This document shows, in pieces, positions 10,218 to 64,000 of a stretch of 64,000 nt of DNA (its first letter is position 1; every line of letters starts with the position of its first letter). Origin of the DNA: Marsupella aquatica. Lineage: Eukaryota; Plantae; Marchantiophyta. The position numbers and the translations under genes were made by a program. Location of the stretch: contig OZ316893.1 of NCBI GenBank assembly GCA_973895155.1, positions 12,540,359 through 12,604,358 on the forward strand. Direction: 5' to 3'. The notes under the pieces are model-generated. The model made no database searches. It saw only the letters and a list, made by a program, of their open reading frames with translations, and was not told the origin of the DNA.

Positions 10218-13200
10218 TTATAAAGTTTCATCCAATCAAAAAGTTAACAGCATCTTTAGCCCATTTGGAGACGAGGGTCTTCAGGAGATTATTTTTCAGC
10301 TTGAGTGCGACAGTAGGTCAACAGTGCACCTTGTAATGTATTTTAGTCGGTGACTTGTATTGTATCTGGGGATAGTGGCTTTACATGTGCTTAATGATGA
10401 TAAGACGGAGATGCGCCAGGCGAACATGTATATCCCCTAATCGAGCTGCGCAAAGGACCCGAAGGTAACGATGACATTAGGATACACAAACACATAAATG
10501 GACACTTTTATGTGTGAATGTTTACATGCCCTTCGAGATGTGCGGTAGACTTGAGGTTGGCTGTGCTGTGGACATTGGTGATTGACAATTATTTGAGTAG
10601 GGGAAGAATGGAATTAAATTACGGAATTAGGAGCCAGAAGTTCCATTGTTACTTAATAGGACCACGTATCCATGTCACACTTGAAGCAATGAAAGAGTTC
10701 TACCAAATTACAGCACGAATTAAGGAGGTCGACCGACAAAGTGTGATTGATTGGTTAACAAAGGTTACTGCTGAATGTCCTGCAGAGCCTTCTTGTGCCC
10801 TTTAAGCACTTGGGATTCCTTCACATTTTCAGCAAATAGAAGTGTGCCACAACACTACACACAGACGAACAAGGAGTATCTATGCGCTTGTTTCTTGCAG
10901 TATTAGATGGGAATGGTGGGGTCCGAATTGCCAGGTTCGTCTTTAGAAAAGTCAGCCCCAATGGAGCATACGGTTGGAGATGATTTCTATACACTTTGGG
11001 CATTTTCATCCACAACATTGAGATCAGAGTTTCCTTTATGGTTAGACTAGTTAGGGAAATAATATGATTGTCACTGACCTGATGTTCTCGCATGTAAAAT
11101 GAAATGAATGCACAGTGTGCAAAATTAATCTTTGAGCTTATGCAAAGTCCGGTTTTTGGAAGAAACCTGAGCATTTTGTTCTTGCTGTTGTATCTGAGAA
11201 CCAAGGCAAAATTTTGATGAGAATTCCATCCGATGGGAGAAATTTATAACTAAGTGACTTGCAGCCATGGAGTGCAAATGCACATTTGATGAGAAACTCT
11301 AAACTGTTGCAATGGGCATGTTGCATTTCCTCTTTCCAACCTTCTGGGCCAAATAATCAGTCAACTAAATCAGCCAGTCCAGGACTCTGGCCACTTTGCC
11401 ACTATGCACCATTTGAATGGTTGAATTGTGGGTTTATGTCCAGAAAAAGCTCAAGGGCCAACATCAAGGAGCTTTTGGCACGGCGAGACCTACTAGTTGA
11501 GCAAGCACAACATAGGCCCAGGCTAATTCATAGCTTTGATCAGTCGTCCGTCTTAGACCATTGAAGAACTCAGGCCAAAATTTAGACAATGGAGCAAACT
11601 GAAGAGACTATAATTGTACCTTTTCCCAATTTGAGAACTCCCACATCTCTTTTTGGAATGCACCTCGATCGCTCATACTATTTTTTTATAGCTAGACGGT
11701 TTCACCTCTGCAAAAATAACTTATCATGTGTAACAAAGCTCAATGCCATTTTATTGGTTCTAAGGGAAGATTTAAAAACATTATGGTATTTTTGAGACTT
11801 ATAAGACCATTAAGATATATCTAATCGTGTTTTGGAATAATTATTTCAAGAATAGTCCAACTTGAAACGGGTAAACCATATATACTTCTTACATAATTTG
11901 TCCATAATTTCTTACATAATTTGTTTTCTCCTTGTTTTGTGGGGCCTGACCTCTCAAAAGATGATGGGGAGGCTTCCATATGATGAGATCCCCAATTTTT
12001 GAGGGTTAGAGGCAAATAGAATGTTTTTAAAACCAAAATTTGAATTTTAAAATTAGTTTTAAGATGGAGGTAAAAACAGAGTAATTTATTTCATAAGTTC
12101 TGCTCAAGGTTACAAACTGTGGCTCTGCATGACTCAGGCCTCCATATAGTGAGACCCTTGAGTTTTGTAGGTGAGATCCTGAAACTCAGTAGCAAAACTT
12201 AAAGAAGCTTAGCCCAAAAATAAACCAAAATATCGCCAAGCCTTGAAGACAACAACCTAACATGAAACCTCGCTAAAACAAACTCCCAGTCACTCAAGAG
12301 GATCACTATTTGTAAGAATTTCACATCAAGTGTGATGGTTTTTTTTTCTTGAAAATCCTTATGAAAAATAAGTCATGCGGATATATATAAACCATTATAA
12401 AATTTCTTTGCATAATTGTTGTACTTAAAAATCATGTAATGGTAATTTTGAACTCTTATTTCCATATTATTGGTACTTACCTCTAAAGCTTTGCTAGGTT
12501 AAGTTTAACCATAGTTAAAGGCTGCTGAGGTTAGCTAGTGGAGACTAGGCACCTTGAAGGAGTTCTTGAATGAGCTCACACTTAAAGACCTTGGACAATC
12601 ACTAAGTGTAAAATTCCCTTATATATGCACAACAATTTGAGTGAAGAAATTAAAAAAACCCTTGTACCATTTATTGTATGAGTGACTTTGACAAATTTTT
12701 AATTACCTTGTTGAATATAGAATATAACCTTCATTTTTCCGCACCCCGTTCTAACATTCAATGGGTTATGCCCTATGCTGGGCTAGAGATCAGTTTCAAG
12801 GAGAGACTAAATGAGAGATAGAAAACAATAATAATCTACAACTATAATAGACAATCCCGCCATTTTTGTCCTTCCTCCTGTTACAAAATCCAATATTGGC
12901 GGGAATCAAAACTGACCATTAGATATTTGAGTGGATTTATTGTATCCGTTTGATTCACTTGCGAGGACTTCCACTCCCGACAATACCATCCGGTCCCTCT
13001 ACGCCTGCCTCCTGCCTATGCCTTCCTTGAAAATACGTGCCTCGCGCCGGACCCTCACGCCACCATCAATGAGGGGATAACGATGCCTCATCATCCCCCC
13101 TCTCCACCGTGCCTCATCATTCCCTCCCTCGCAAATGCTCCCCCCATGCCTATGTCAATCCGTCCCCTCCCCTCTGTGCCTCATCATTCCCTCCCTCCCT

Positions 13201-15160
13201 CGCAAATCCCCTTGACTTTAGCAATTCCATCTTTCCCGTCATTATGGACAATCCCCCCTTGCAAATGCTCCCTCCAATATGGGTCGACTCTCCTTGCACA
13301 GTGCAACACACTGGCATAGGGCTTGTTTAGTCATAATAGAGGAGCTTGTGGCTTGCCATGCCATAATAGATGTATGGTGTTATGCATAGTGGACAATAAT
13401 TTCTCAATGGGAAGTCCATTAGAGGACTTTTGGATGCGTTGAAAATCTCGTGAGGAATCCTCCTGAGCTCAGCTGGGTTTGGAGGCGTCGTTGGGTCTTG
13501 AGGTTTGCGGTGGCTATCTTGCCTGCCAGCTTGCCAAATCCTGCCAAAATAGTAGCCAAGTCGCGTTCAGTTTTCCACGAGAGCTTGCATTGGGGAGGAA
13601 ATGCATAGTAGGTACGGGTGTTGAGGCCCAAGTGCAGTTGGTCCCTAGATTCTCAGTTGGGTGGAACCTTTGGGATGGTTGCTGGAGTCAAGGCCAAACT
13701 GGTCGGACCAAAGTTTAGGCAAGCTTTGGACAAGCTTCGGGACAAGCTAGCTTATTTGGGCCATGAGCATGTCCTGGGAGCAAGGCAATCAGCCAACGAC
13801 AAATTATAGGAAGTGGGGAAGCACGGGCGACATCCGTAGAGGGGCTATTCTAGAGAAACAATGGATGTCGGCTGTGGCTTTGGACTTATGGCAAGGCCAT
13901 GCGGTCCCGGGAGGTTCTATTCTCTGGCCTACTTACTAATGTCTATTGAGCTTGAGTCAAGACACTAGTCTTAAAATTCCTAAATCCTACGGGGTTACTT
14001 ACCAAGGTGTTTGGTTGCTTGTTTAGATAGCAAGGACTATTGAGCAACGGTCGTGTTAGGGAGCAAGTGTGGCTTTGTATGGGAGTTGCCACGTACTAGA
14101 GGTGCTCGAGATACCATTTTACTTGCTCAAGGAGTTTTGTGTAGGCGTTCGGGCACCAACTAGAGGGTACTTAGGCAAGGGTGTTGGGCTTGGTGAGGGC
14201 GTTGGGTGGCTGGGTCCACCACTCTTTGGAATCCTATCTCCTTCTTTTGCACCTTTGGTTCTTTTGCAGTGCAATATATATAAATAAAATTCCATTGGAG
14301 GTATTGCAGTGGGATATACCATAAGAATTTGCAAAAACAAACATTAGAGAGAATTCAGCACCTTCGAAAGTGATAGAAGAATATATTGTGATGGTGCTCA
14401 TGTAAGCAATTTAAGAAAGGCAAAACAGCAGGTAAATTGTTGCAATGTGTGCCCACTGTTCTTAAACAAAGGCAAAAAAGCAAGCCCCATAACATATCTG
14501 CCAGCCTGGCCTATGTCAACACAGGTGTTCCTCAATCAGTCAGCATAAAACAAATATGTGAACACAAAAAGTTACTTCATGATGACAAAATACTGTATTT
14601 TTTATTACGCATCATAACCCATCTTTATGCCTGGCCTATGTTATGACATGTAACTATGCAGTATACTCCAGGGCCATACTCCAGGGCTCAACCAGGCTTT
14701 TCAGTTTGTAGTTCAATAGGGCTTTGGTTCATTGTTGTTCCTACCGTTGAGGTTAACATCTCTTAGGCTTTTCAGGTTCCTTGGTCTTCCCAGTTTCTTC
14801 CATTGCTTGCCCCCTTTGTAGTGTAGTGTTTCTTGACTTTTGGGATCCTGTCTACCCGTATGCCACTTTTTATTATCCTGCAATCAAAGATTATAATAAA
14901 CACTCCTACTACTTTTTGCAGTGGTGTTTGCAATGCCAAAAATTTTCTAGGAAGGAACCAAAACAAGGAGGACACACAAAGAAACTAGAACAAGGGGAGA
15001 AGGTGACACAGAAAGAATGGGAGAAAAGGGAAGGGATAGAGGAGAAGGGGACTCAAGGGAGGAGGATCAAGGAGTATTTTTCCTCCCACCACCCCGGCCA
15101 GAACTTTGCACCAATTGCATAAAGTCCTAAACATGGTCCACCAATGTCAATCCTAAGAGT

Positions 15161-15304
15161 TTTTGGGGTTTTGACTCGACCTTGGCTAGGTTAACTAGAG
15201 TAAGTTAACTGGAGTTAACATTAGTGAATTAGTGAGTCTTCATGAAGGGATAACCCTCTTTGTATCCAATGGAGAGACTACATGATTGTAGTAGTTGAGA
15301 ACTT

Positions 15305-15343
<39 letters not shown>

Positions 15344-15577
15344 TAGAGAGAGAGCTTGGACTATGGACCCAACTATGGAGGTATGGTGATGTATTCATTG
15401 TGAAGCTCTTGATGCGGCCATGTATGTAGCCCGGACACCGGCTCAAATGGGATGAATCAAACACATACATATATATGTATATATCTTAGTTTGTGTCGGT
15501 GTACTTGTGTGCTATGTGTGCAGTGATTGATTTTGAGACGTCATACTCTCGGTCATGCTGTCCATTTTGATCTTACA
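15161..15577 (+). mobile_element. Probable solo LTR of a second family, containing a (GT)n run
   Basis: Flanked by AGAGT at 15156-15160 and 15578-15582 and ends in TTACA. The 5' end reads TTTTGG, so the expected TG would be mutated. Composition resembles the other LTRs. Confidence 0.6.
15307..15340. repeat. (GT)17 microsatellite
   Basis: Direct reading. Confidence 0.95.
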
Positions 15578-18500
15578 AGAGTACCCTGTTTGTGGCAATT
15601 GCCAAACACTACAAATTGAGACTTTTAAAATAATTGGTTAGAGTGTGAAGTGGGCCATCAGCTGCATTTCTTTGTAAGGCCAAACTAGAGCCTCTTATTA
15701 GCCTATGCCCAAATGCCTGCCCTTGTCCTCTTTTACGCAAAACATTATTTCACATAACTATGTCCTTTCCTTCATGATATCTTTTGTGAAGTGATTTTTT
15801 TTATGCAATGACTTTTGGCAGCATGTCGTGCACATAGACATGCACATAACATTGCTACGCACACAACATACATCGATTGTCAATCCAAACATAGTTGCAA
15901 TCTAACATCACAAACATAAGATAATGAAGTACATGTCAAGTGAAACTCATGCCCAAAACCCACTATAATCTTTCAAGAATTAAACAACGATTGATATTTG
16001 CAATGCACAACCGATCCCGTCCGATGCAATCACCAATGTATGTCATGCCAATTAATATAATTATGCACTCAAGAAATCCATATTATTTCCTACACACATA
16101 ACCTGGTCAGTCACACTGTAGTTGCTAGAGCTTGTCCCTTGAAGGTTCAACATCAAAAGATGAGGCCCTTGAGCCACCACAAAGGGATAGATAATTATCA
16201 TTCCCCAAAATGTATTAATAAGAGCCCTAAAATGCCCCAAATTAGCACACATGCAAAAACTCTAAATCTAGATAGCACATTATACTATACAAACCCCTGG
16301 GCCCTCACTAAAGGGCAATGTAACGAGATATACCTATGACCAAAGCCTCCCCTGGTACCCCTTATTATATTTTTGAGGAATATTTAAATCCATCTTGTTC
16401 ATTCCAAACAGAAATTTCAGTCCTATATAAAATCCTCGTAGGTTATTATCATCGTTGATATTTTAGGATTTAGAACACCCTTCATTTGTTATAAAAAACA
16501 AGGTTAGGGGATGCATATAAGGGTCTTCTTCACCTTGGGCCGTCCATTCAAGGGCAACCTCTCATTGACTCGCTCATTGAACGGCTCCAAGAACCCAAAA
16601 TCCAGGTTACACCCAAATACAAGAGGGTCGGGGAGGGGGTTTAGGGTTCTCATGTGAAAACTAGTATGAGAGACTAACCCTGTCACATACCCTAAACCAA
16701 TGAGACCATGACACGTGGACCAATCAAATGCTGACACCTATCATGGAGTATTTAATACCCCACCAGCTTATGTAATGGGCAACCAAATTTACAATAGTCT
16801 CCATTCCTTCTAACCTAGACTACAAGCTAGATAAATAACATAAGTATGCCCTCAAGGGCTCGTTCAAGGGTCTGACTACATGGAGACCTCCCTATCACCT
16901 GCAATGTTTTTAGGCCTTGAGCCCCCAAAAATGTAAGATTTAAAAAATAAAATTTAACCCCTACAAAGTTGGAATATTTTTGGAATATTCAAAATTTTGA
17001 TTAAAACGATCTTAATGCTCTTATGAGTCTCAAAATTGAATTTAAAAGACCCTAAATTGTACGTTCTTTTGCAAAAATTCTTAAATCTTCCCTTAGAACC
17101 AATAAAACTACTTTATCTTTCGTTGCACTTGATGTGCCATTTTTGTGGAAATGAAACCCCCAAGAGTATGCCAAGAGATTTGATGGATGTGGACGGGGAG
17201 CAATATTTAGACATGTCCATTTTTATCTAAATCTCACTTTCCAGAATTTGTTTGCTCACTATAAACTAAGACTTTCTTCTAGCATTTTCAGTGGTCTAGA
17301 CTTCATAGACCCCCTACTTAAAAACTTTTACTTGATCAACCCTCTCAAAACATTTTTGCCCCAATAGGCCCCCTCTTCATGAGCCATACCTTTGATGCCT
17401 GGAGGTCTACTGGGAGAGAAAATGCCAGTTGGGTCTAGTGAGAATGAAAGTTTATTTAAGAGGTCCACAAAGCATACCTTTACGAACGCCTTATCCCCTG
17501 TTTGATTTCTATCTTGATGGTCTTCTTTAGACATCTGGAGTGTGTCCGGTGTACTTCAAAGGGCTAGGGCTTTAACTGTTCTTTGTAGAGTCAAGGGGGC
17601 TGGTTTTAGGCTCTCTAAACAGATTCTTTATGTGACACTCCTAGCTATACTAGGCTTTTCAGTTTTTTGCCTAGTAGGGTTATAGTCAGCTTGGCTACTT
17701 AGGTTTTTATTTATTTATACATTTGTTCCCTTTGTTATTATGGTGGTCTCCCTGATTGTTTGAGTCTCTTTGGTCTTTTGGGGTCTTTCCTTTTCCTTTC
17801 CCTCCCTTTAGTGGGTCCTTGTGCCTTCGGAATCCTCTCTCCCAGTTTGGCAGGTTTGTCCTTTGGCAGCCTGATATATATGTTTGCTATCTTGATGCGA
17901 GTCTCGATGTAACACCCTAGAGATTCTTGAAACAATAACCCTCAAAATCCTAACTTTAAACCCATTAATACAAAAGATATACAATCAATAATGTAGATCC
18001 CATTTCATTCTCTTAGCAGGTGCGTGAACCAAACAGAAAAGGTCCACAAGGGCGGGTTTCCCTGAGTGAAAAACAGAGAAAAAAACAACAAAAAAACAAA
18101 TAATGTTGTCTATTTTGTTAGGTAGCACATCAGCTTAACGTATCAGATTTTATTCCAGCATGGCAATTAACACACGGCAATGTTCAGTTCAATACGTTGT
18201 ATATGTCACAGTCACAGGTAATGGAAAAAAAACTATTGTCTAAACATACTCCTGGATAAGAATGGCTTTACAAAAAAAAAAAGATGGTCTGGGTTGTAAT
18301 CTAAACATACTCCTGGCTTATCCTAGCTACTATAAAATCAGATTGGGTTTTTAAAAAACATTTTGGTCATGAGGGTTATAGCCTAATAACCTTTTACTAT
18401 ACATGGACTGCCAAATGCCCTTTTATCGTAATTTTTAAAATTTTGTATTGTACTACTTTTCCCAAGGCCCTTGAGCACTACTTCCTTGGCACTCACAGTC

Positions 18501-18749: not shown

Positions 18750-19241
18750 AGATTACTATTTGATAACAGATCAGATAGAACGTTAGTTGGCTATGTAGAT
18801 TCTGACTATGGAGGCTGTCTGGATACAAAGAGGTCTACAACTGGGTTTGTATACACTCTTGGAGGAGGATATATCAGTTGGAAATCTACCTTGCAGAAGT
18901 GCATTTCTCAATCTATTACAGAAGCAGAGTATGTTGCAACAGCAGAAGCAGCAAAGGAAGTAATTTGGTTGGATAAGTTGATCGCAAAGATGGGTTTAGA
19001 GCATGGCAAAATGACTCTAAACTGTGATAGTCAGAGTGCTCTTCACTTCGCTGCTAACCAGGTGATGGATTGCAAGGTGAAGCACATTGATATCAGATAC
19101 CATTTTATCAGGCAAGCAATGTCTGATAAAACTTTTGAGCTAGTCAAGATTGATGGAAAGTTCAATCCCGCTGATGCCTTTACCAAAGTGATTCCTTTGG
19201 AGAGTTTCTCAAGACACCGTGCTACTTTGCAGGTTTTGTAG
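18750..19241 (+). pseudogene. Ty1/copia pol 3' fragment (RNase H domain), 5'-truncated
   Basis: LVGYVDSDYGGCLDTKRSTTGFVYTLGGGYISWKS...SITEAEYVA...CDSQSA...KHIDIRYHFIR...NPADAFTK are canonical copia RNase H motifs. No RT, integrase or gag is visible upstream. Confidence 0.95.
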
Positions 19242-22870: not shown

Positions 22871-24329
22871 AAAGCTTGGTGCAAGAGGCAGTTGGCATAG
22901 TTCAAGTTACTTTGCAGTCTTAGCATCTTTGTCAAGTTTTCTTAGGCTAAATTGAGGTTTAGCTAAGTTCTAGCAAATTGGGAAAAGTAGAGGGTAAGTA
23001 CAAGGTTAGAAGGTGGAGTATGTTTTGAGAGGCAAACTATGGACAAACTACACGGTGAACTATATCGTGGACAACAGTATTCATAATTTGGCTTAAAAAT
23101 ACAAGTTAAATTGATTTAAACAATGTAATCCAATAACTCTCATAGTAATCTGGTGTGAGGCACATGTATCTTTCTAAAAAATGATATATAAAGTATCTCT
23201 ATAATATTTATACAATATATTTAATGCTTTATTATTTTCAATTTGTTTTTACTAAAAATCCCCAAAAGTTTGCTAATTTGGTTGTAGATTGCTGTACTAA
23301 AAAAACGTATACAATTTGGGGACAGTTTGGAGAAGCCAAATTTATTACCAAGGTCTCTACTGAACAAGATAAAGATGAACAGGTACACAAAAGAGACATA
23401 CTACTAGAGAAACCTACCATGCAAAGTGGGGGAATACATGGTGTAATTTCTCCTACTTTGCATAGTAGGTTCTTCTAATAATCTGTCAACCCATACATGC
23501 CATCATTGGCTCCATTTGGAGAGGCAATGTTCTTGAAAATATTGTAAAACCTTACAATCATGCTTCAGATACAGGTCGGCAAAGTTATTGAACTGCTTTG
23601 TATTTGAGGAATACTTGTGATTTTTTTTCTGAATTGTCTTGAGAGCAACTCTACTAACCAGCAACATGCAGTAGCAAAATCAGGAGTCAGGCCCCAAGAA
23701 TGGAGGGAGAATACAGACCCATTGAGCCACCTCAAACAGATGCATCCAGTGAGGAGATGTGGCTGAATAATAATAATAATTCAGCTTACTATAATTGGTG
23801 ACTCATGGGGTTTGCTTGTTATTTCCAAATCAAATCAAATGGGGTTTGAATGTACTAAATGTTTGAGGAAATGTTTTGGAAATGGAGAAAATGGTCTCAG
23901 AAAATACTCATACTTTGTAACGTAAGAGATTGGAAATTCGAGATTATGTGGACATAATTTGAGCTCAAACATAGATCTAAAAGTTGCCCAGATAACTACA
24001 TAATTCTGCCAAAAACCAGTTGCACAACTCTGCATAAAACAAGCAGTTTACAGTTTGTTCGATGTCTACCCGAGGGGCCCCAATCCAAGGGGTGTCCCAT
24101 ATCACATGCAAAGGTCTAGGAGAATAAATACCCTGAAAGTTAAGTAAATAATGTTTGACAACTATATTTTTGCCCTAATTTAGTGGAATATTCTTGGAAT
24201 ACTTTATTTTGTCCAAAAACCCCTATGAGTCTTACAATTCTCCAAACTAGACTAAAACAACCCTAATGCCACTCAACAAAAATTCTTCTTCTTTGCTTGT
24301 GATGGGTTGGAAGAAAAGAAGTGAGAACC

Positions 24330-44355: not shown

Positions 44356-54617
<10,262 letters not shown>

Positions 54618-55416
54618 GTAGCATGCTTGAATTTAGATTAAAGATTGGACGTTCTAGCTAGGAGACATGGACATCGCACGATGTGCAATACAGATGAAAA
54701 TTTCCCTCAGGTTTTGTTTTTTCTATAGTCGGAAAGTTGATGAACTCCCATGATTTCCTTACGTCGTGGTCCAGCCTCGTGGGAGGACAGACATGTAGAT
54801 GCATACACAAACCCCGGTTAACGAGTCAAAACATTCTACTAGCTAGAACCTCTGAGGTAAAGCTTATGTTTGCTATTGCTTTTAAAATTCTCGTGAAACA
54901 CGTTATTCCATGATTAACAATGGACTGTAATTATCGCATTTGGAATTTGATAGACACGTTATTCCTTTTTTGATTCCAATTGCAGGTTTTGATGAATGGT
55001 CTACTATGTCTAGCATGGAATCGGATGAAGAATGGCCATATGCTAACTTGATTTCCAATTAGCTAGGCTGGCACTAAGGATTATAGGATGACGAGGAATT
55101 CGTTATAATTTCAGTTAAAAAGTTGGAGTCACATTTTGATTCGAAGTTCTGTTGTTAGCTCGACCTGTTTACTAACAGCAAAAAATGACTTGGAGTGATC
55201 GAGGTACTCATCTTGTTTCTTAACTTCGCCGAAAGCTCGAAAGCAATACCAAATCAATTTGTTGCTGACTGTGAGCTAGGATTTGTGTATGCATGTACAT
55301 GTTTGTCGTCCCGAACAACTCTAGCAAGCTGCTCCACGGCCCAAGCATGGAGGCAAGGGTAAGCTGAGATGTCTCTGTAAATCGCAGCTCAGACGGTTCA
55401 CATCTCACTTGGTCTG

Positions 55417-55489: not shown

Positions 55490-55756
55490 TCCGCAGAACA
55501 GGGACCCTTTGAGACTGGTTCTGCTGTACATTATAATAGCATATTTAGTTTCCGCCGCACGATGCGATTGCTGCTGAGATCGGACCGTACAGCTGTGCCT
55601 TTTCGATATTGTCACGCCGCAGATCGAGGTGCTCAGTGGACATGAAAGTATGAAACCTCGCTTCCTCGCCGTCGGTGACGTAATCTTGGTCTATAGTCCA
55701 TGTTACCGTCTGGTGAAAGGATCTGGCGGACCTCACCATTTGCATAATGTTGGTGG

Positions 55757-55888
55757 CTGACACAACCACTTTCTTGTGAGTTTACTGCCTGACACCGTAA
55801 GTTTGCTTTCTGACACTATAAGTTTGCTTCCTGACAGCATAATTTTGAGTCCTGACAAAATGTCTTTGTGTAAATTTACATCCTGACA
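55757..55888 (+). repeat. Subterminal array of six CTGACA motifs on a 21-bp period
   Basis: CTGACA starts at 55757, 55789, 55810, 55831, 55852 and 55883. Confidence 0.85.
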
Positions 55889-56123
55889 CAATATCTTTCA
55901 ATTTTGAAAGGTGCAGCCAGCGCATGGAAGTAGGTGGCATCAGTCAATGAATAGTGGACAACAAGTACGACAGATTTTGTGAGACTCATGCCCAATGAAA
56001 GTAACATTTTTTGAAGAAATTTTCACTTTATTTGTAGGCCTCATTGCTACACTTTAAATTGTAGTGACATGTCATACATGACTCATCTGTCTGGCCTATT
56101 ATAGTAGATAGGAACTGAAAACG

Positions 56124-56248
56124 TACGCAGATTCATGATCTGTCTACTGAGCTAATCCTAAAGTTTTATTGCCAAATCTATCAAACCTACGCAGATTCAT
56201 GATCTGTCTATTGAGCTAATCCTAAAGTTTTATTGTCAAAACTATCAT
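56124..56248. repeat. 64-bp tandem duplication downstream of the recombinase stop codon
   Basis: TACGCAGATTCATGATCTGTCTAYTGAGCTAATCCTAAAGTTTTATTGYCAAA.CTATCA occurs twice. Confidence 0.9.
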
Positions 56249-56278
56249 ATCTGACTTCTTCACTGCCAAAGTCTAAAT

Positions 56279-59200
56279 TCATAATGTCATATTCTCCTTC
56301 TCCTCCTCCTCCTTAGTAGGCTGCACAATCTTGATTGTGACGGAACAATTGTGAAATTGGTTCCCTGTCAAGCTGTTCTTCACAGACACGTTAGGCCTTT
56401 TAAACGCCCTCCCGCACATTCGTTTGTAAAGGATCGGATCCTTGGCAAATTCACTCTCGTAGTCAAAACCATCATCATAGTAAGGAATTTCTGACTCGTC
56501 CCTCTTTGCCTGCAACACCTTCACAGCATTTGAGTTTGACTGTTGAGAATAGCCAAAAGTACAAAATTAATTAATAAGCTCTACGGGGCAATTTCATTCG
56601 GGTCACATACTCTCCCTCTGCACCTGCCTTACTTTATTCTTTGGACTTCAAAAATGGTTGTCGTAGTTTTACGAGGCTACCCGGGGCGAGCAAGGCAAAA
56701 TCTTACCCTAATTTTATAATTTTCACACAACTGTCACTATGACTTCGATTGCACAATCCCAGCCAAGTCGATCACAATTTAGGGGCTTGGTTCAGAATAA
56801 GGACGTAATAGCACACACGATCTTTTGAAGAGCTGAGGAAAGAAAGACACAAAAAAGAAGAAACATGGAAGTCAATTACAAGTAGGTCAATCCGAAAACA
56901 AAATCTACTTGAAATCACTAGATGATTACGGCAGATATTATAGCTGAGACATGTATGATTATTGAGACAACAAAAAAAATCTCCGCTCGACGCGATGCAC
57001 TGGGAACCAAGCTAATCAAAATCACCAGACTACTGCAAGGCAGACTCCTGAAAGGTAATATGAAAGGAAGAACGGAAGGACCCGGACTACCGAGCTCCAA
57101 TCCACACCACCAAATCCTTCCAATTAAAGGAACCAAATAGACCCGTGCCTAAAACCGAACGTACAAGGAATCCTGCGCTTAAAAGCGCAATACTACACTG
57201 TCAGCAGACATGAAAACTTTGAATAGCCTTTCCCTCATGGAAACATCAGGGAACACGGTACTACTGCCGACAAAAGTTAGCTGTGAAGTCCCAGGTATCA
57301 AACTCGCCCCACTAACACGGAATAAGCTCAAAAGCGAGGCTCCATCACAGCCACCCTACAGCCCCTGCCCCGAGGAAGAACACCATCTCCTCCTATCCTT
57401 TCCAGATGAAAACGAAGCGGAGAGAAACACACCAGAAACCTAACGAGCCCTATTTTGACATGTGACAGACACTAGAGCCAGTCCGAGTCTTGATTTAGGT
57501 CACACCAGTCACCGACCTCCCATAGCGCTGTTTGCATGGACATGACCTTGAGCTCTCTCCCCTCTCCTACTCTCTTCGACCGCCAACTCTTCCCGAGACT
57601 AGGTAAAGTGGACACACACAAGAAAAAAACCACAGAGCAGATTGACCGAAGCCATAGATACACACTTTTGAAGAGCTCTTTTGACGTAAATCTTTTGAAG
57701 AGCGAAGGTGTCTTGACGGCGATGCCTCAAGACAGGCGTTTGTCTGAAATGCCAACCACACAGAGCCTCACTACTAACACCTCACCAACAACTCACCTGG
57801 TTGTTCTGTGTTATTGCCAACTCTTGCTTCTGTGGTGTGTTCGATCCCTATAATCCAAGAAGAAAAACAGATAATTATTCTGGTCAACAATTCTGGTATA
57901 GTCGGTTAGACATTGTTTTCCGGCTGAACACAAATTTACAATCAGACAATAATACATAAAGACACCTTTCCGAAAACAGAGCTGCGATGCTCTTCCCCTC
58001 TCCACTAAAACCCCTAAGGACGAACAAGACACAAAATGTACAAGTTGAAAAACTATGCGAGTCAAAAACAAGGTCGGAGACAGAGATAGAGACAGATCCT
58101 TCTGTCGCCTCGCGACGTGCCGATTTCACTTCTTGGACCGCTGAGAGATCGATGCATTCATGGAAGATCGACAATTCTTTCTTGTAGTTCAAACTTCACG
58201 AAGAATTGTAGACAGGTTATTCTTATCGAAATGAGGCGGTAGTCCGTAATTTTTCGGAAGTGATAGATTGCAAAATCCAGTACGTACTCACCTGTACTCC
58301 ATTTTGCAACGCCAATTGCATGTTGAATTTCTCACTCACCCTGTCAATCAAGGGTTTCAAAGCTGTAGAGGAACCGACTAACTCCTCCTCCACGAAAGAT
58401 TTTGACACGTGAGCTAGTGCCTGTCCATAATCCACATTCGGACTTGAGGAGACTAAGGCTGCAGCTTCCATTTTCAACTTTTGAGTTCTATCGTATCTCT
58501 TGTACCCTCCAGTACTGCGATGACCAGTTATGGCCATGCCTACCTCGTCAGGCACTCCTTTGGCAGCCATGCGCGTCACTAATGTTGCCCTCCCACTTCG
58601 GTTTGTAAAAATTTCAGGGGGCAATCCCACAAGTAACGCCATATTCTTCAGCCAACCTCCTGCAGCCCCCTTCCCAACTTTTTGACACTTATTGTACCAC
58701 ACAATGCTAACAGGGTTAGTTATAGCCTGCATAAACAAATCAGGCTTCTCTGTCTCCTCAGGGCATGGCAGATGACGCTTATATTGTGTTACTGTCATGA
58801 CAAAATCATCTTCGTAACTATGATAAACATTTCTGAATTGCTCTTCACTGTAACGATCCATGCTATAGTTGTTGTTCTTACTTAATCGCTCCTCAAATCT
58901 GCCACACGAACATCAGTAAAACTCTTAGAAAGAGTGCGCAAACCAAAGAGTGTCAGCCGCAGGTTCCATTCTCCCGTGGATAGGCTCTATTACAGGGAAG
59001 TCTCACAGGGCGGGTCTTGAGAAAGAGGAAATATAACATCAAACAATTAAACTCATTCATGGTTTCAATCGAGCACTCACTTCACATACTCCTTCCCAGA
59101 CCTATCAGTGCAGACAATAATATCATCTCTGTGTAAATTCCACAGTTCCATGCCTCCACGAATACCGAGCCTGACAAGGAAAAAAAATGCCAAACGTTTT

Positions 59201-60980
59201 TGGCATCCATGGCTTGATGTCACTTGATGGTCGATGTCTGCCAAAATTGCTTTCTCGTGTTCTTCCGTCAGTATTTCCGACTGCAACAAAACACAACCAA
59301 AAGTCTATCAGAAATCAGACAGTGCATTGAAGTCTCTAACTCCAGAACACAGGCAAAAGCCAGGACAGATAGTCGATGGACCATCCCCCTACAAGCTTTG
59401 CGGTCACAGAATAGCTGAGTCGATCGATCATCATGTCCAGTTGTTCCACTCAGTCGGGATCGATCATCACGTCCAGTTGTTCCACTCAGTCGGGCACTCA
59501 TTGCGTACGATTAGATTTTATTTTGTTTTAGTGAATTGAAGTCTGTGACTTAGCAAATTGAGAATAGTGGTGCACATTGCTAATTCTAGTATATCGATAC
59601 ATTGAGAACAGGGAATCAAAGGATGAGCGACCCTGGGAAGACTGAGTCAGCTGCGTCCTCACAAGTCCCTGTTAAGTACGACACCGAGCCACATCTTTGG
59701 CAGAAACATCGTAGCTTAAGCCCTGAACGTTGTTCTCGGATGACTCCCAAGTCAGAAGGTCTATTAATTGTCTGAGATGACCCCATTCGGTCTCGGACAA
59801 GCTCTCCACATTTCTGACTTAGACAAGACCGATTTTGATAGCTGATAGCTGCTCTCTGTCGGGAGTTAAACCTCGTGTCAATGAACTCCCCTCCAGTGCA
59901 TCAGGAAACCAACCTTGAGTGACGTGCCTATGCGAAGGAGCTCAAAGATTATCGGTCGCCTAGAGTGAGCACAAAGCATTTGCGGCTGGAGGTAGGAATT
60001 CAACAAGATTTTACATAGAATGCACCTATTGCACTACCATCGGTGCCAGATGATTTTGCTTCAATTAAAAGAACAGTATGCGGAAGGACTAAACAATACA
60101 GTAAGTGCGAAAGGCTTATGAATCAAGTAATACTCACTTTCAGCCTCTTCTTGTTTAGTCCTTCCTTCGCGCTTTTTTTTATTGCAGCAACGACAACCAT
60201 CCGCGTTTTTGCAAATGCTGGATGAGAGTTTATGTTGAAGTCTCTCTCAACTAGATTTGTCTGTTCTGTCAAGGACCTGATGTCACTCGCTCTTCTGATG
60301 ATCCGATTGAATCCATTACACATGTTCATAAGCGTGGATGAGGGATAAGGTGTCCCATCGACCTTAACAACTCTGGAAAATAGGTTACTCAATAACTCAT
60401 CGAGTTGCCTCAATGGCAAGTCTCCTAAACCTATAGACATGTCCCAACCTAACCCTTTCCTCAGGTCGTTAGCTCGCTTCGAGGCCCACTTGTCATTGTT
60501 CTCTGAAGGAAGTCTCTCCTTTCCTTTCCCTGCATCTGCTAAACCAGGGTCGGGGAGCGCCCGCAGCCCTGGCATGCTTACCTTTGTTGCCTCTGTAGCC
60601 TCGATCTGTCCGTCGTTAGGAATGTTTACACAATTCTCAGCAAGAACAGTGACGATATTGACTGTTGCACTCTCTCTGGATAACTCATCAAAAACATTTG
60701 ATAAATCAGGACTATCTACATCCATCTCCTCACCAGCGATCAACTCATCGACTAATAGGAAATCAGAGTCTTCAGAGCTCCAGTGCTCTTCAACATCGGT
60801 TATTGCTCTGTCGATTGTCCCTGAATTGTCACTCACGTCCTTAACAATGCTCTCACTCACTTGCATTCCCCCACTCACGTCCGCCATCTCTTCGTCCAAG
60901 ACTTCACATCCAGCAAACATGGGTGCTATCGACATTAGTATTTCAGAGAATGAGACCAAACTCTCGACCTGGGCTAACAT
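56279..60980 (-). CDS. Crypton/DUF3504-type tyrosine recombinase, ~636 aa, at least 4 exons
   Basis: Exons 60980-60138, 59280-59081, 58898-58292 and 56539-56279 (three GTGAGT donors, CAG acceptors; 1911 nt, no stop). Motifs: LDELLSNLF..V.KVDGTPYPSSTL, LGIRGGMEL (Arg), ERLSKN (Lys), VWY...VG, TNRSGRAT (second Arg), ITGHRSTGGYKRY (His, Tyr) and C-terminal FHNCSVTI. The start codon and linkage of the last exon are less certain. Confidence 0.85.
59421..59494. repeat. 36-bp tandem duplication in recombinase intron 1
   Basis: GATCGATCATCAYGTCCAGTTGTTCCACTCAGTCGG occurs twice. Confidence 0.9.
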
Positions 60981-61749
60981 AGTTACTAAAAAGATTGTAG
61001 GTACACAGCGAATGAGAGTCTTCTATCAACTCGACTGTATGCAACTCAACTGTCTTCAAGGCGCTGTTGCAACTCGCATAGACAAACACAAATTCAAAAA
61101 GGATATCGGTCACTCCCCGCTCCATGCAACTCGCCATTCCTTCATCAACTTGCATGGAAACAAGATTGTCATCTGCCAGTCACCGCTCCAAGAAACTAGC
61201 AATTCTTGGCTGAAAGAAATTTGAACCCGATGCTGCCATTCCCCGCTCATTGCCACTGTACTCAATTGATCTCCATCGCTCCATTGATCTCCATTGCATT
61301 CAAGCTCTCCATTGGCGCTATTGATCGTTTCATCGTTGGCAGCTACTGCTGCTCGTCTGCACGAAGCTCAAACTCAAATCGGGTGCTACTGCTTGTCGCC
61401 TCCGCCCAAAGCTCAAACACAATTCGAAATGTTGAATGAGGAGCTAGGCGCCCCTTTCCTTCTTTACCCCGCTGCCACGGCTCGCACTGCATCGACGTTC
61501 CCGATTGATTGAACTGGTCACAGCCGGTAATATGGACTAAAAACCATGATTACGTACGTTAATAACGATCTCGGTCGTCCGTTACTACGTTGTACTGGCC
61601 CTCCCCGGTTCCTCCACAGTCGCTCCCGGCTACCGCCGGTCACAACTATGTCAGAACCTGGTCGTCCCATTACAACCTAGTAACGGTCGACCAGACCGTC
61701 ATTATCCTAGACATAAAAAACCCAACTTCGTCACGTCAGCGAGGTTCCT

Positions 61750-61982
61750 GATTTTTTGCCTTCCATTCCATTCGTTGAGTATCAGTTTCATTCAGTTTCG
61801 TTTCGGTGGGGTTTGCACTAGACGAGACAGTCGACGGAGGGGCAAGACGGGCGGCGGCCATTTTTCGGCGTTGGTCGTTCACAATTGGTTCCTGAAGCTT
61901 TTGGAAGAGATTCCTCGATCGGAGCGGGAATTGGAGCAGCGGTATTGACGGTCGAGTTCTGTCTGTCTCGTCGATCAGCAAG
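61750..61982 (+). other. Probable non-coding first exon of a downstream + strand transcript
   Basis: UTR-like sequence ending in a strong donor (CAAG/GTATGT at 61983). A candidate acceptor lies at 63883. No CDS recognised within the window. Confidence 0.3.
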
Positions 61983-64000
61983 GTATGTGTATGATCGATT
62001 GCGAGCTTTTTTGGATTTGCGAATGAATGATGATGCTGCAGTCATTGACGTCTTCAGGTCTTAGATTGCGTATGGCTGAAACATTGGACAGTTTTCAGTT
62101 CCTGTAAGATCAACTCGAAATGCTCGACGTCGGTGGCCTGGAATAATCTGGAAGCTAGGTTCTGCGGATAAAACTTCGCTTATCTTGGATAATGAGCTCA
62201 TTCGTGCGAGATCAAACCTTTTTGACTTGGACTTCCGCTGCCCACCTTTCAAAGTGCACGACCCTGGTAACTTTTCGATCATTATCTACGCAACGAGCCA
62301 CCTGCATTTTACAGACGGAGGCTGCCTCGGTCTGTCGAGAAGCTCGTTGTACCAGCGTCGTTCTCAGATGTGCTTCCGGTCTCGTTCGGAGTTAGTTTGC
62401 AAGTATCTAGCTAGATGGTGATGACCTAGAAAGCTATTCTGTACGCGTTACAACAGACTTCTCCAAGCTTATTGTCTTCAGATATTCTTCGGGCTGCTGA
62501 TACCTGAGGACTTGAAGAGGCTCTTCCTCGCATGAGAAATGACGCTGTCGTTATTGGACTCTGATTGGACATTCGTATCATATATGGCAGCCGTCTCCTG
62601 TAAACTGTACAGGAAAACAGCCTTAAACCCTGTCAAATGCAAGCACGGAGTTTATTGGCTTCTGATCACAACGTGCTAACATCCTAGCCTGCATCGATCT
62701 TAACAACATCCTACTTTTGGTGACACCACTGAAGTACGTTAAGCTCTTGTCAGTCTGCACAATTTCAATTCGCTACTGGCTCATTGAGGTGAAGCAACAC
62801 TTTCTTGGCTTCCTATTACAAGGGAGTCCTGACATGACACCGGCTAGGCCCTGTACGTCACTGTGAGCGAAATCCAACCCCACATTTTCTTTCTCTGGAT
62901 CAATTCTCTGTTTCTTCCTTGTCATTTTTCCTCGTTCACAAATCCTTTCGAACAGATTGTTCACCATATTCACGTAAGCGCTTCAGACTCTCCTAGCTGA
63001 ACTGCGTGCCTCTTACCGTGGTGTACTTCAAGATCACGATATCTACCCTATAGACCCTAAACTTCTTGACATTTATTGAGACTGTCAATTGCAGTTCAAT
63101 CTTTTACAATCAAGCAAATCAGTTCTGCTGAATGAATTGTACCCCACGCACTGAGTGTTTCCACTTTTTAGATCGAAAGTGAGTTCGATCCAGAATTCAA
63201 TGGTGTACAAAGATGTTGCACTTGAAGTGATTGGGTTGGTCGTTCGTCTCGGCTGCGAGAGACTGCTCGATACCGCCGAAACTGTATAGCTGCAGGCATA
63301 CGATCCAGCTCAGCTAAAATTTCTTTCCATGCCTCATTTTAGTTGACAATAACTGCATATTTTACTGTTTTTAAGAAATACTCTGTATAAGGAAATTACT
63401 AGCTTTGTGCACATGAGGGGAATTATGAATACAGTCTTCACCTCGATATCTTCCTCTGACCTAGAATTGGGGACCCCATAGACAAACTAGATAGCCAATA
63501 GAATTATTTGCATAGTGGCGTGCTGACCCTAAACTATAGCCAATAGAACCTTTATGAGTAAACCTTACTTGTACGGTGGTTTTATTACACCCTAATGATT
63601 GACAGTTGGATTAGGCGGTGATCGATTGTCATGTTCTCGCTACAAGCTATCTCAGCTCGGGAGTAGCTGGAGAGCGATACATTTTCCGCTTTCAGTCGAG
63701 GCCAATTATCTCTACTCTCTATGTGCGTCACGTACTCTTGCATAACCATTTACGATTTCACAAGGCCAGAAAACCCCGCGTAGCTACTGTAGCTGTACGT
63801 ACCCTCAAAGTGCCAGTCATCTAGAACCCTAAATTAAAGTTTCAGAAGCTCGCTGTTGTCGCATTTGAAATTTTGCTGTGCAGGTTTAAGATTTGATTGT
63901 TTGCCCTCACAATTCTGGGGATTGCTGTTTCGCAACAACGAATCTGTGCAATTGGTTCAGCAACGTCTTATATTTACATACCAGAGCCCGCCTTTGGTAC

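Follow-up and report, generated by a model that had tools for sequence, protein, structure and literature searches.

The window, that is, the whole 64,000-nucleotide stretch of Marsupella aquatica DNA analysed, holds an element of 6039 bp (55678..61716, both terminal hexamers included) carrying a gene for a tyrosine recombinase. The gene lies on the minus strand and consists of four exons separated by three GT-AG introns (857, 182 and 1752 nt), which together encode 636 amino acids with no internal stop. Exon 1 (60138..60980), with its predicted start at the first ATG of the open frame, appears from its sequence and from the model of a relative (P0001) to comprise an acidic N-terminal region and a helical core-binding domain; exon 2 (59081..59280) contributes R322 in a GIRGG motif; exon 3 (58292..58898), which gives a weak Pfam match to Phage_integrase (E 0.11), contains K355, the N-R-S-G-R motif with R448 and R451, H474 and Y483; and exon 4 (56279..56539), placed by splice reconstruction, includes the stop codon. 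Apart from the antisense of exon 1, there is no other frame of at least 130 amino acids within 55678-61716, and the tyrosine recombinase is the sole mobilising enzyme, with neither a reverse transcriptase nor a DDE transposase. Two small tandem duplications are also present, one in the 3′ region (56119-56246, 64 nt) and one in the first intron (59422-59493, 36 nt).

The predicted protein is 51% identical over 617 residues to the Calypogeia fissa protein P0001; another gene of the window, belonging to the host, has 80% identity with a C. fissa protein, which makes a leafy liverwort the likely host. R322, K355, R451, H474 and Y483 align with the DUF3504 catalytic columns, in agreement with a first-pass annotation that had described an open four-exon gene with R, K, R, H and Y at the catalytic positions, and the motif spacing (33/96/23/9) is that of the DUF3504 rows. 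The R, R and Y of the R-H-R-Y tetrad are present, but the His of H-x-x-R is replaced by Arg448. Since Lys or Arg stands at this position in most of the plant relatives, the replacement is, on the sequences compared, a trait of the plant group rather than decay of the window copy. Neither the four exon frames nor P0001 and P0002 gave a Pfam DUF3504 match above threshold, and two near relatives gave sub-threshold matches; phmmer connects P0001 to DUF3504 proteins (E about 1e-14), and Atlas places this relative among DUF3504 clusters (feature score 0.98, structure TM 0.79). In the AlphaFold model of P0001, confident for about residues 210-575, the best solved fold is that of Cre (Foldseek E 6e-7; VIA Z 18.4, rmsd 4.3 over 298 residues), with IntI (2a3v) fifth at Z 14.5, the Atlas, Foldseek and VIA results all pertaining to P0001 and not to the window protein itself. 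A sequence search of the PDB gave chance matches only. The DUF3504 or phage integrase fold that the annotation had proposed to look for is borne out by structure in the relative and falls below threshold in Pfam. With its open gene the element is autonomous-looking, and the recombinase may be active.

The search with P0001 returned 561 proteins at E ≤ 0.001 among 1.84 billion representatives, the weaker matches carrying DUF3504. Organism names are attached to 13 of the 20 relatives looked up, all of them seed-free land plants (Calypogeia, Marchantia, Ceratodon, Adiantum, Selaginella and Diphasiastrum) that span liverworts, a moss, ferns and lycophytes; no related locus was confirmed in metagenome or viral contigs. 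In a tree of 50 rows (six short rows of 56 having been dropped), midpoint-rooted without an outgroup and built without Repbase references, a branch with support of 100/98 parts 30 rows, including the window protein and all named plant rows, from 20 classical DUF3504-type rows, and a 24-row group containing all named plant rows receives 87/97, below the starred level. Homology to the CryptonA/DUF3504 group is evident in sequence, features and structure, whereas the Pfam threshold is not reached and the tetrad is incomplete; with its single mobilising enzyme and a terminal direct repeat in the 4-6-bp range, the element is of Crypton type and allied to CryptonA, without having every feature by which CryptonA is recognised. 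Among the relatives, Marchantia MPTK1_5g04240 and its M. paleacea match (P0028, P0158) are almost identical to each other and keep R, K, R and Y with the second His lost; on its sequence, MPTK1_5g04240 is a candidate domesticated Crypton gene. The Diphasiastrum and Selaginella proteins P0062, P0069 and P0077 form a well-supported lycophyte clade whose members lack the catalytic residues and have annotated isoforms; it likely represents an old domestication parallel to that of ZMYM/QRICH1 in animals.

The extent of the element was read from public contigs aligned to the window, namely four runs (X1-X4) from two studies, one of them possibly the source of the window, each run containing at least 93% of the words of the region, and run X6 of a further study, from a lineage about 90% alike; run X5, which gave scattered pieces only, was left out. 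On the left, foreign sequence precedes 55678 in at least three contigs, all from X3, among the listed 24 of 274 loose ends, and these contigs together with one X6 joint place the left end at 55678. On the right, among the listed 24 of 68 loose ends, at least ten contigs break behind 61716 (two in X1, three in X3, four in X4 and one in X6) and at least six more scatter over 61709-61719; the depth of the aligned contigs falls sharply at 61713-61727, in X3 from 1504 to 89 across 61701-61739. The ends so mapped bear the plus-strand hexamers ACGTAA (55678..55683), the likely crossover core, at which the other copies break on the left, and ACATAA (61711..61716), which form a 6-bp direct repeat alike at 5/6 positions. 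Contig depth in the public runs is several-fold higher over the element than over the flanks, and difference-free internal contigs exceed the flank in depth (58 versus 19 in X1, 353-355 versus 27-69 in X2, 92 versus 28 in X4), contig depth being, by the alignment tool's own warning, not a copy number. The element is present in several near-identical copies with different flanks. That it is a transposon with ends at 55678 and 61716 seems to us hardly in doubt.

An apparent empty orthologous site is seen in one X6 contig (depth 3.7; short side of 26 nt, below the 30-nt caution level), which joins 55679 to 61716 and skips the whole 6 kb. Its joint reads AC-AAATC-A, with five other letters between, so that no exact ACRTAA is present and the core is degenerate. 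Diverged flank contigs that start exactly at 61716 (X3 record 16, X4 record 24) have about the depth of the occupied allele; the parts seen, from 61716 onward, are consistent with an empty allele. The flank 61716-61841 itself occurs in X3 and X4 in two versions about 9% apart and of similar depth, a pattern that a hybrid or allopolyploid would show if one of its sites were occupied and the other empty. A deletion form joins 61132 to 61679, lacking the subterminal repeat and most of the terminal hairpin described below; its depth (117 in X2, 81 in X3) is about twice that of a single allele, so this form may have been copied without the hairpin. No circle junction or other end-to-end joint was found in the public contigs, in which rare forms are dropped.

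The ends form no true pair of terminal inverted repeats. Instead, a 35-bp inverted repeat has one terminal arm (55678..55712) and one subterminal arm (61521..61555), the latter 161 bp inside the right end and terminating in the inverse core TTACGT (61550-61555). The arms match at 30/35 positions, against 21/35 for the best other match of the 35-mer in the 64 kb and 23/35 for its own partial palindrome. These arms correspond to the sites that the first-pass annotation had taken for the bounds of the element: both 31-mers (55678-55708 and 61525-61555), their inverted relationship and the likeness of their 8-bp spacers (6/8 inverted, 4/8 direct) were found as described. Their reading as cognate loxP/dif-like sites with crossover in the spacers, however, does not hold, as each palindrome has only 7/11 complementary arm positions and contig homology stops not in the spacers but at 55678, where the left site has its outer limit, and at 61716. 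The annotation had named homology running past its sites as evidence against itself; on the right this is what is seen, contigs passing through 61555 to 61716, whereas on the left homology does stop at 55678. It overlooked the 6-bp terminal direct repeat and the foldback at 61550-61716. Under the mechanism proposed below, the inverted pair would have a role, though not as two crossover sites. Inside the left end, six plus-strand CTGACA motifs (55757..55888), four of them spaced by 21 nt, may be accessory binding sites.

The 167 bp from 61550 to 61716 fold back on themselves: the terminal ACATAA pairs with TTACGT (61550-61555) at the foot, followed by a 4×6 internal loop and a long hairpin (61560..61704) made up of a 12-bp outer stem, a bulged base (61572) and a main stem of 58 positions, with a GGTA loop on the minus strand. 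Of the 76 positions of the foldback, 57 are Watson-Crick pairs; every one of the 19 mismatches is G·T or purine-purine when read on the minus strand, and C·A or pyrimidine-pyrimidine when read on the plus strand. The 19/19 was tested against even odds, the expectation if a perfect stem had decayed (p 3.8e-6), and also under a composition null (p 2.7e-4); in the main stem alone, where the register came from a strand-blind tool, 16/16 mismatches favour the minus strand (p 9.8e-4), and two other inverted pairs in the window give 1/4 and 3/5. The foldback (folding z −9.0) is predicted to fold far better on the minus strand (−45.2 versus −31.0 kcal/mol). Three tandem GA/GA mismatches (plus-strand 61602, 61613 and 61624) lie 11 nt, or about one helical turn, apart, and variants among the copies strike 1/12 tandem-GA positions as against 10/20 other mismatch positions. 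Of the 25 listed variants in the foldback, 13 restore a pair or have a partner change, compared with 5-11 in 24 shifted registers, and five break a pair; with 40 of 73 variants listed and partner changes unphased, this compensation is a modest signal. The favoured strand is also the coding strand, and an RNA role of the hairpin is possible; a comparison of 55500-62000 with Rfam yielded nothing at E ≤ 1. A protelomerase-like role, suggested by the Lys/Arg motif and the long palindrome, was rejected, as the hairpin centre is a 4-nt loop rather than a perfect palindrome and protelomerases come low in the fold comparison (Z 6.9-8.0).

From these features, a mechanism can be proposed in which the folded strand is the substrate. 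The recombinase would join the two ACRTAA cores to release a circle. In the circle, the joined core would be followed by the left end, which could pair with the subterminal repeat and add about 30 bp to the stem, so that the folded minus strand would be a rod some 100 bp long; it is only after circularisation that the inverted pair would have this effect. In this rod the core would lie in the stem above the 4×6 internal loop, the 12-bp stem and the bulged base, an order matching the R box, unpaired spacer, L box and extrahelical base of attC. One strand would then be exchanged with a duplex ACRTAA-like target, and replication would resolve the junction, which would allow the copy number to rise. 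Precedents exist for its parts: attC sites undergo recombination in the form of folded single strands resolved by replication (PMC3458562, available text) and, on the strand that recombines, show a bias to G:T and purines (PMC5027507, in the portion available), and active Chlamydomonas Cryptons gain copies despite clean excision, according to the accessible sections of PMC9977147. The modelled circle junction has a folding energy of −71 versus −50, a gain that the 30/35 repeat already entails and that therefore adds no independent evidence. If the element is a transposon with the mapped ends, we think it somewhat more probable than otherwise that the folded strand is its substrate; the explanation as a whole, a 6-kb multi-copy Crypton-type transposon recombining the folded single strand of its right end, has in our judgement a bare balance of probability in its favour.

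The most serious competitor, which we consider a real though lesser possibility, is the ordinary Crypton route, in which double-strand recombination of the 6-bp cores would yield a duplex circle able to insert into a matching target, and the hairpin and subterminal repeat would serve as a replication origin, as a host-factor or accessory site, or as an RNA structure upstream of the gene. It is this route that has been published (PMC3212892, PMC9977147, as far as their accessible text goes), and circles have been detected for Starships (available text of bioRxiv 10.64898/2026.09.21.753150). It would also suit a circle junction in which short inverted arms, CCTAGA and TCTTGG (5/6), flank the core, a hairpin-less deletion form that may exceed one copy, and a nearest fold that is Cre and not IntI. 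Taken alone, however, it does not account for the pairing of the terminal core with an inverse core at the base of the foldback or for a copy of the left end lying exactly where the stem would extend, and use of the foldback as duplex or cruciform gives no reason for mismatches that favour one strand in 19 of 19 cases. Against the folded strand stand the roughly twofold depth of the deletion form, the imperfect core of the X6 joint, the missing circle junction in the contigs, the coding role of the favoured strand and the Arg at the H-x-x-R His. We favour the folded-strand route over the plain duplex circle.

The remaining readings bear on parts of the same evidence. It is improbable that the terminal 160 bp represent a small element of their own, such as a Helitron-like or MITE end, abutting the Crypton. 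This reading is suggested by the terminal 120 bp being far deeper than the interior (930-2355 versus 326 in X3), a peak that at 61675-61700 may arise partly from both hairpin arms aligning to one place and gives no copy number for short derivatives. Contigs nevertheless run unbroken from the interior through the hairpin, even where a subfamily shows 26 differences over 206 nt; GGTAAC...TACGT-like letters from the subterminal repeat persist in related copies; gene and hairpin are both absent from the X6 joint; and the core pairs across the supposed border. Short derivatives of the element itself are likely abundant, and non-autonomous derivatives outnumber autonomous Cryptons elsewhere (PMC3212892, in the text available). 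The invertible cassette that the annotation had offered, in which the recombinase would flip the 5.8 kb between two inverted loxP-like sites, draws on the 30/35 inverted pair and its 6/8 spacers, but it is largely refuted and, to our minds, very improbable: the arms are complementary at only 7/11 positions, copies end elsewhere, related copies, with loose ends before 61548 and 61552, no longer have the inner TGG/CCA palindrome of the right site, and in the five runs with the element or its relatives no strand-change joint occurs, neither among the 11 joints of the whole-element alignment nor in the right-end alignment, which has no joint of any kind, rare forms being dropped from such contigs. 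Introns and the domesticated look of some plant relatives, namely Marchantia without the second His and the lycophytes without catalytic residues, would fit a domesticated single-copy host gene; with several copies in different flanks and an apparent empty orthologous site this reading falls and is scarcely credible, and the annotation's view of a Crypton-like tyrosine-recombinase transposon in a land plant is upheld by the copies, the empty site and the fold.

The proposed folded-strand transposon is worth comparing with known systems. Like the CryptonA elements and DUF3504 recombinases of animals and the Glomhoppers of Glomeromycota, it has a single tyrosine-recombinase gene, a DUF3504-like fold and spacing and no GCR1_C domain (PMC3212892, PMC13465315, in their accessible parts), and introns occur in Glomhoppers as well (PMC13465315, same parts). 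It differs from these in its land-plant host, in lying below the Pfam DUF3504 threshold, in the Lys/Arg that the plant group has at the His of H-x-x-R, and in having defined ends with a direct repeat, a subterminal inverted repeat and a hairpin; in the available text of PMC3212892 no terminal repeats are reported for animal CryptonA, and those of Glomhoppers are described in that of PMC13465315 as unidentifiable or poorly conserved, with ends that could not be defined. A terminal direct repeat of this kind is found in fungal and oomycete Cryptons (PMC3212892, available text), and CryptonF and CryptonS, with the active Chlamydomonas element CryptonF-1_cRei among them, share a 5-6-bp terminal direct repeat matching the target (PMC3212892, PMC9977147) and insertion into intergenic DNA near genes, the window element lying between a peptidase M49 gene and a probable downstream promoter; the proteins of CryptonF and CryptonS, however, belong to another group, and the portions of these papers available report no hairpin or subterminal inverted repeat. 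With attC the foldback shares an imperfect hairpin, core/inverse-core pairing, an unpaired spacer, a second stem, a bulge, a purine loop and the one-strand G:T and purine bias (PMC5027507, in the portion available), whereas its core is ACRTAA/TTACGT without the RYYYAAC/GTTRRRY consensus, it measures 167 nt versus 57-141 bp, the element carries its own recombinase, and single-strand use is here a proposal. As regards Cre/loxP, Flp/FRT and Xer/dif, Cre is the nearest solved fold to the modelled relative, but the crossover points have no pair of 11-13-bp palindromic sites. The attP of CTX phage is grouped with integron attC for such comparisons. In Helitron2/Helentron ends a terminal inverted repeat and a subterminal one precede a hairpin, and these elements use a HUH Rep-helicase; no such protein is encoded here, and the window hairpin is much longer.

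No land-plant or hairpin-ended Crypton was found in the openly accessible papers searched, and Repbase, subscription reviews and bioRxiv supplements may contain some; in the text available, a review of plant genomes refers to Cryptons only to say that they are rare among eukaryotes (PMC11630846), and a paper on introners names no plant Crypton (PMC12130899). In the one study of active Cryptons, copies gained in number despite clean excision (PMC9977147, accessible sections), and the ends of DUF3504-group elements could previously not be defined (PMC3212892, PMC13465315, in the parts available). With an intact element, mapped ends, an apparent empty site and a strand-specific hairpin, the mechanism becomes directly testable. 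The findings extend Cryptons to land plants and point to repeated domestication there (Marchantia, lycophytes). We propose, tentatively and at a little short of an even chance, an undescribed Crypton lineage of seed-free land plants that inserts a folded single strand with replicative resolution, as a counterpart of attC. To our knowledge, folded-strand recombination is confined to bacteria and their phages; if the proposal is true, a eukaryotic counterpart of integron attC recombination would exist, and the intact, recently amplified copy would be a ready substrate-and-enzyme pair and possibly a plant-native, one-way, structure-specific integrase.

The surroundings of the element contain several further features. 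The 3′ exons of the peptidase M49 (dipeptidyl peptidase III) gene lie at 53708-54617 (Pfam E 8e-13), with the element about 1 kb downstream, and just to the left of the Crypton a MITE-like pair of 34-nt inverted repeats, 88% complementary and 464 nt apart, occupies 54781-55312. At 63734-63772, a 39-nt piece occurs in other, mutually identical flanks in all four runs and is therefore likely a scrap of conserved or organellar sequence. An open frame at 18750-19241, which we take to resemble a Copia RNase H fragment, gave no Pfam match at E ≤ 0.01. Three nested inverted matches (81, 50 and 26 nt) at 11698-17158 delimit a 5.5-kb element with long AT-rich terminal inverted repeats, on its sequence probably a decayed transposon of the Mutator or foldback type, and at 23395-23487 there is a hairpin with 40-nt arms, 80% complementary, and a 13-nt loop.
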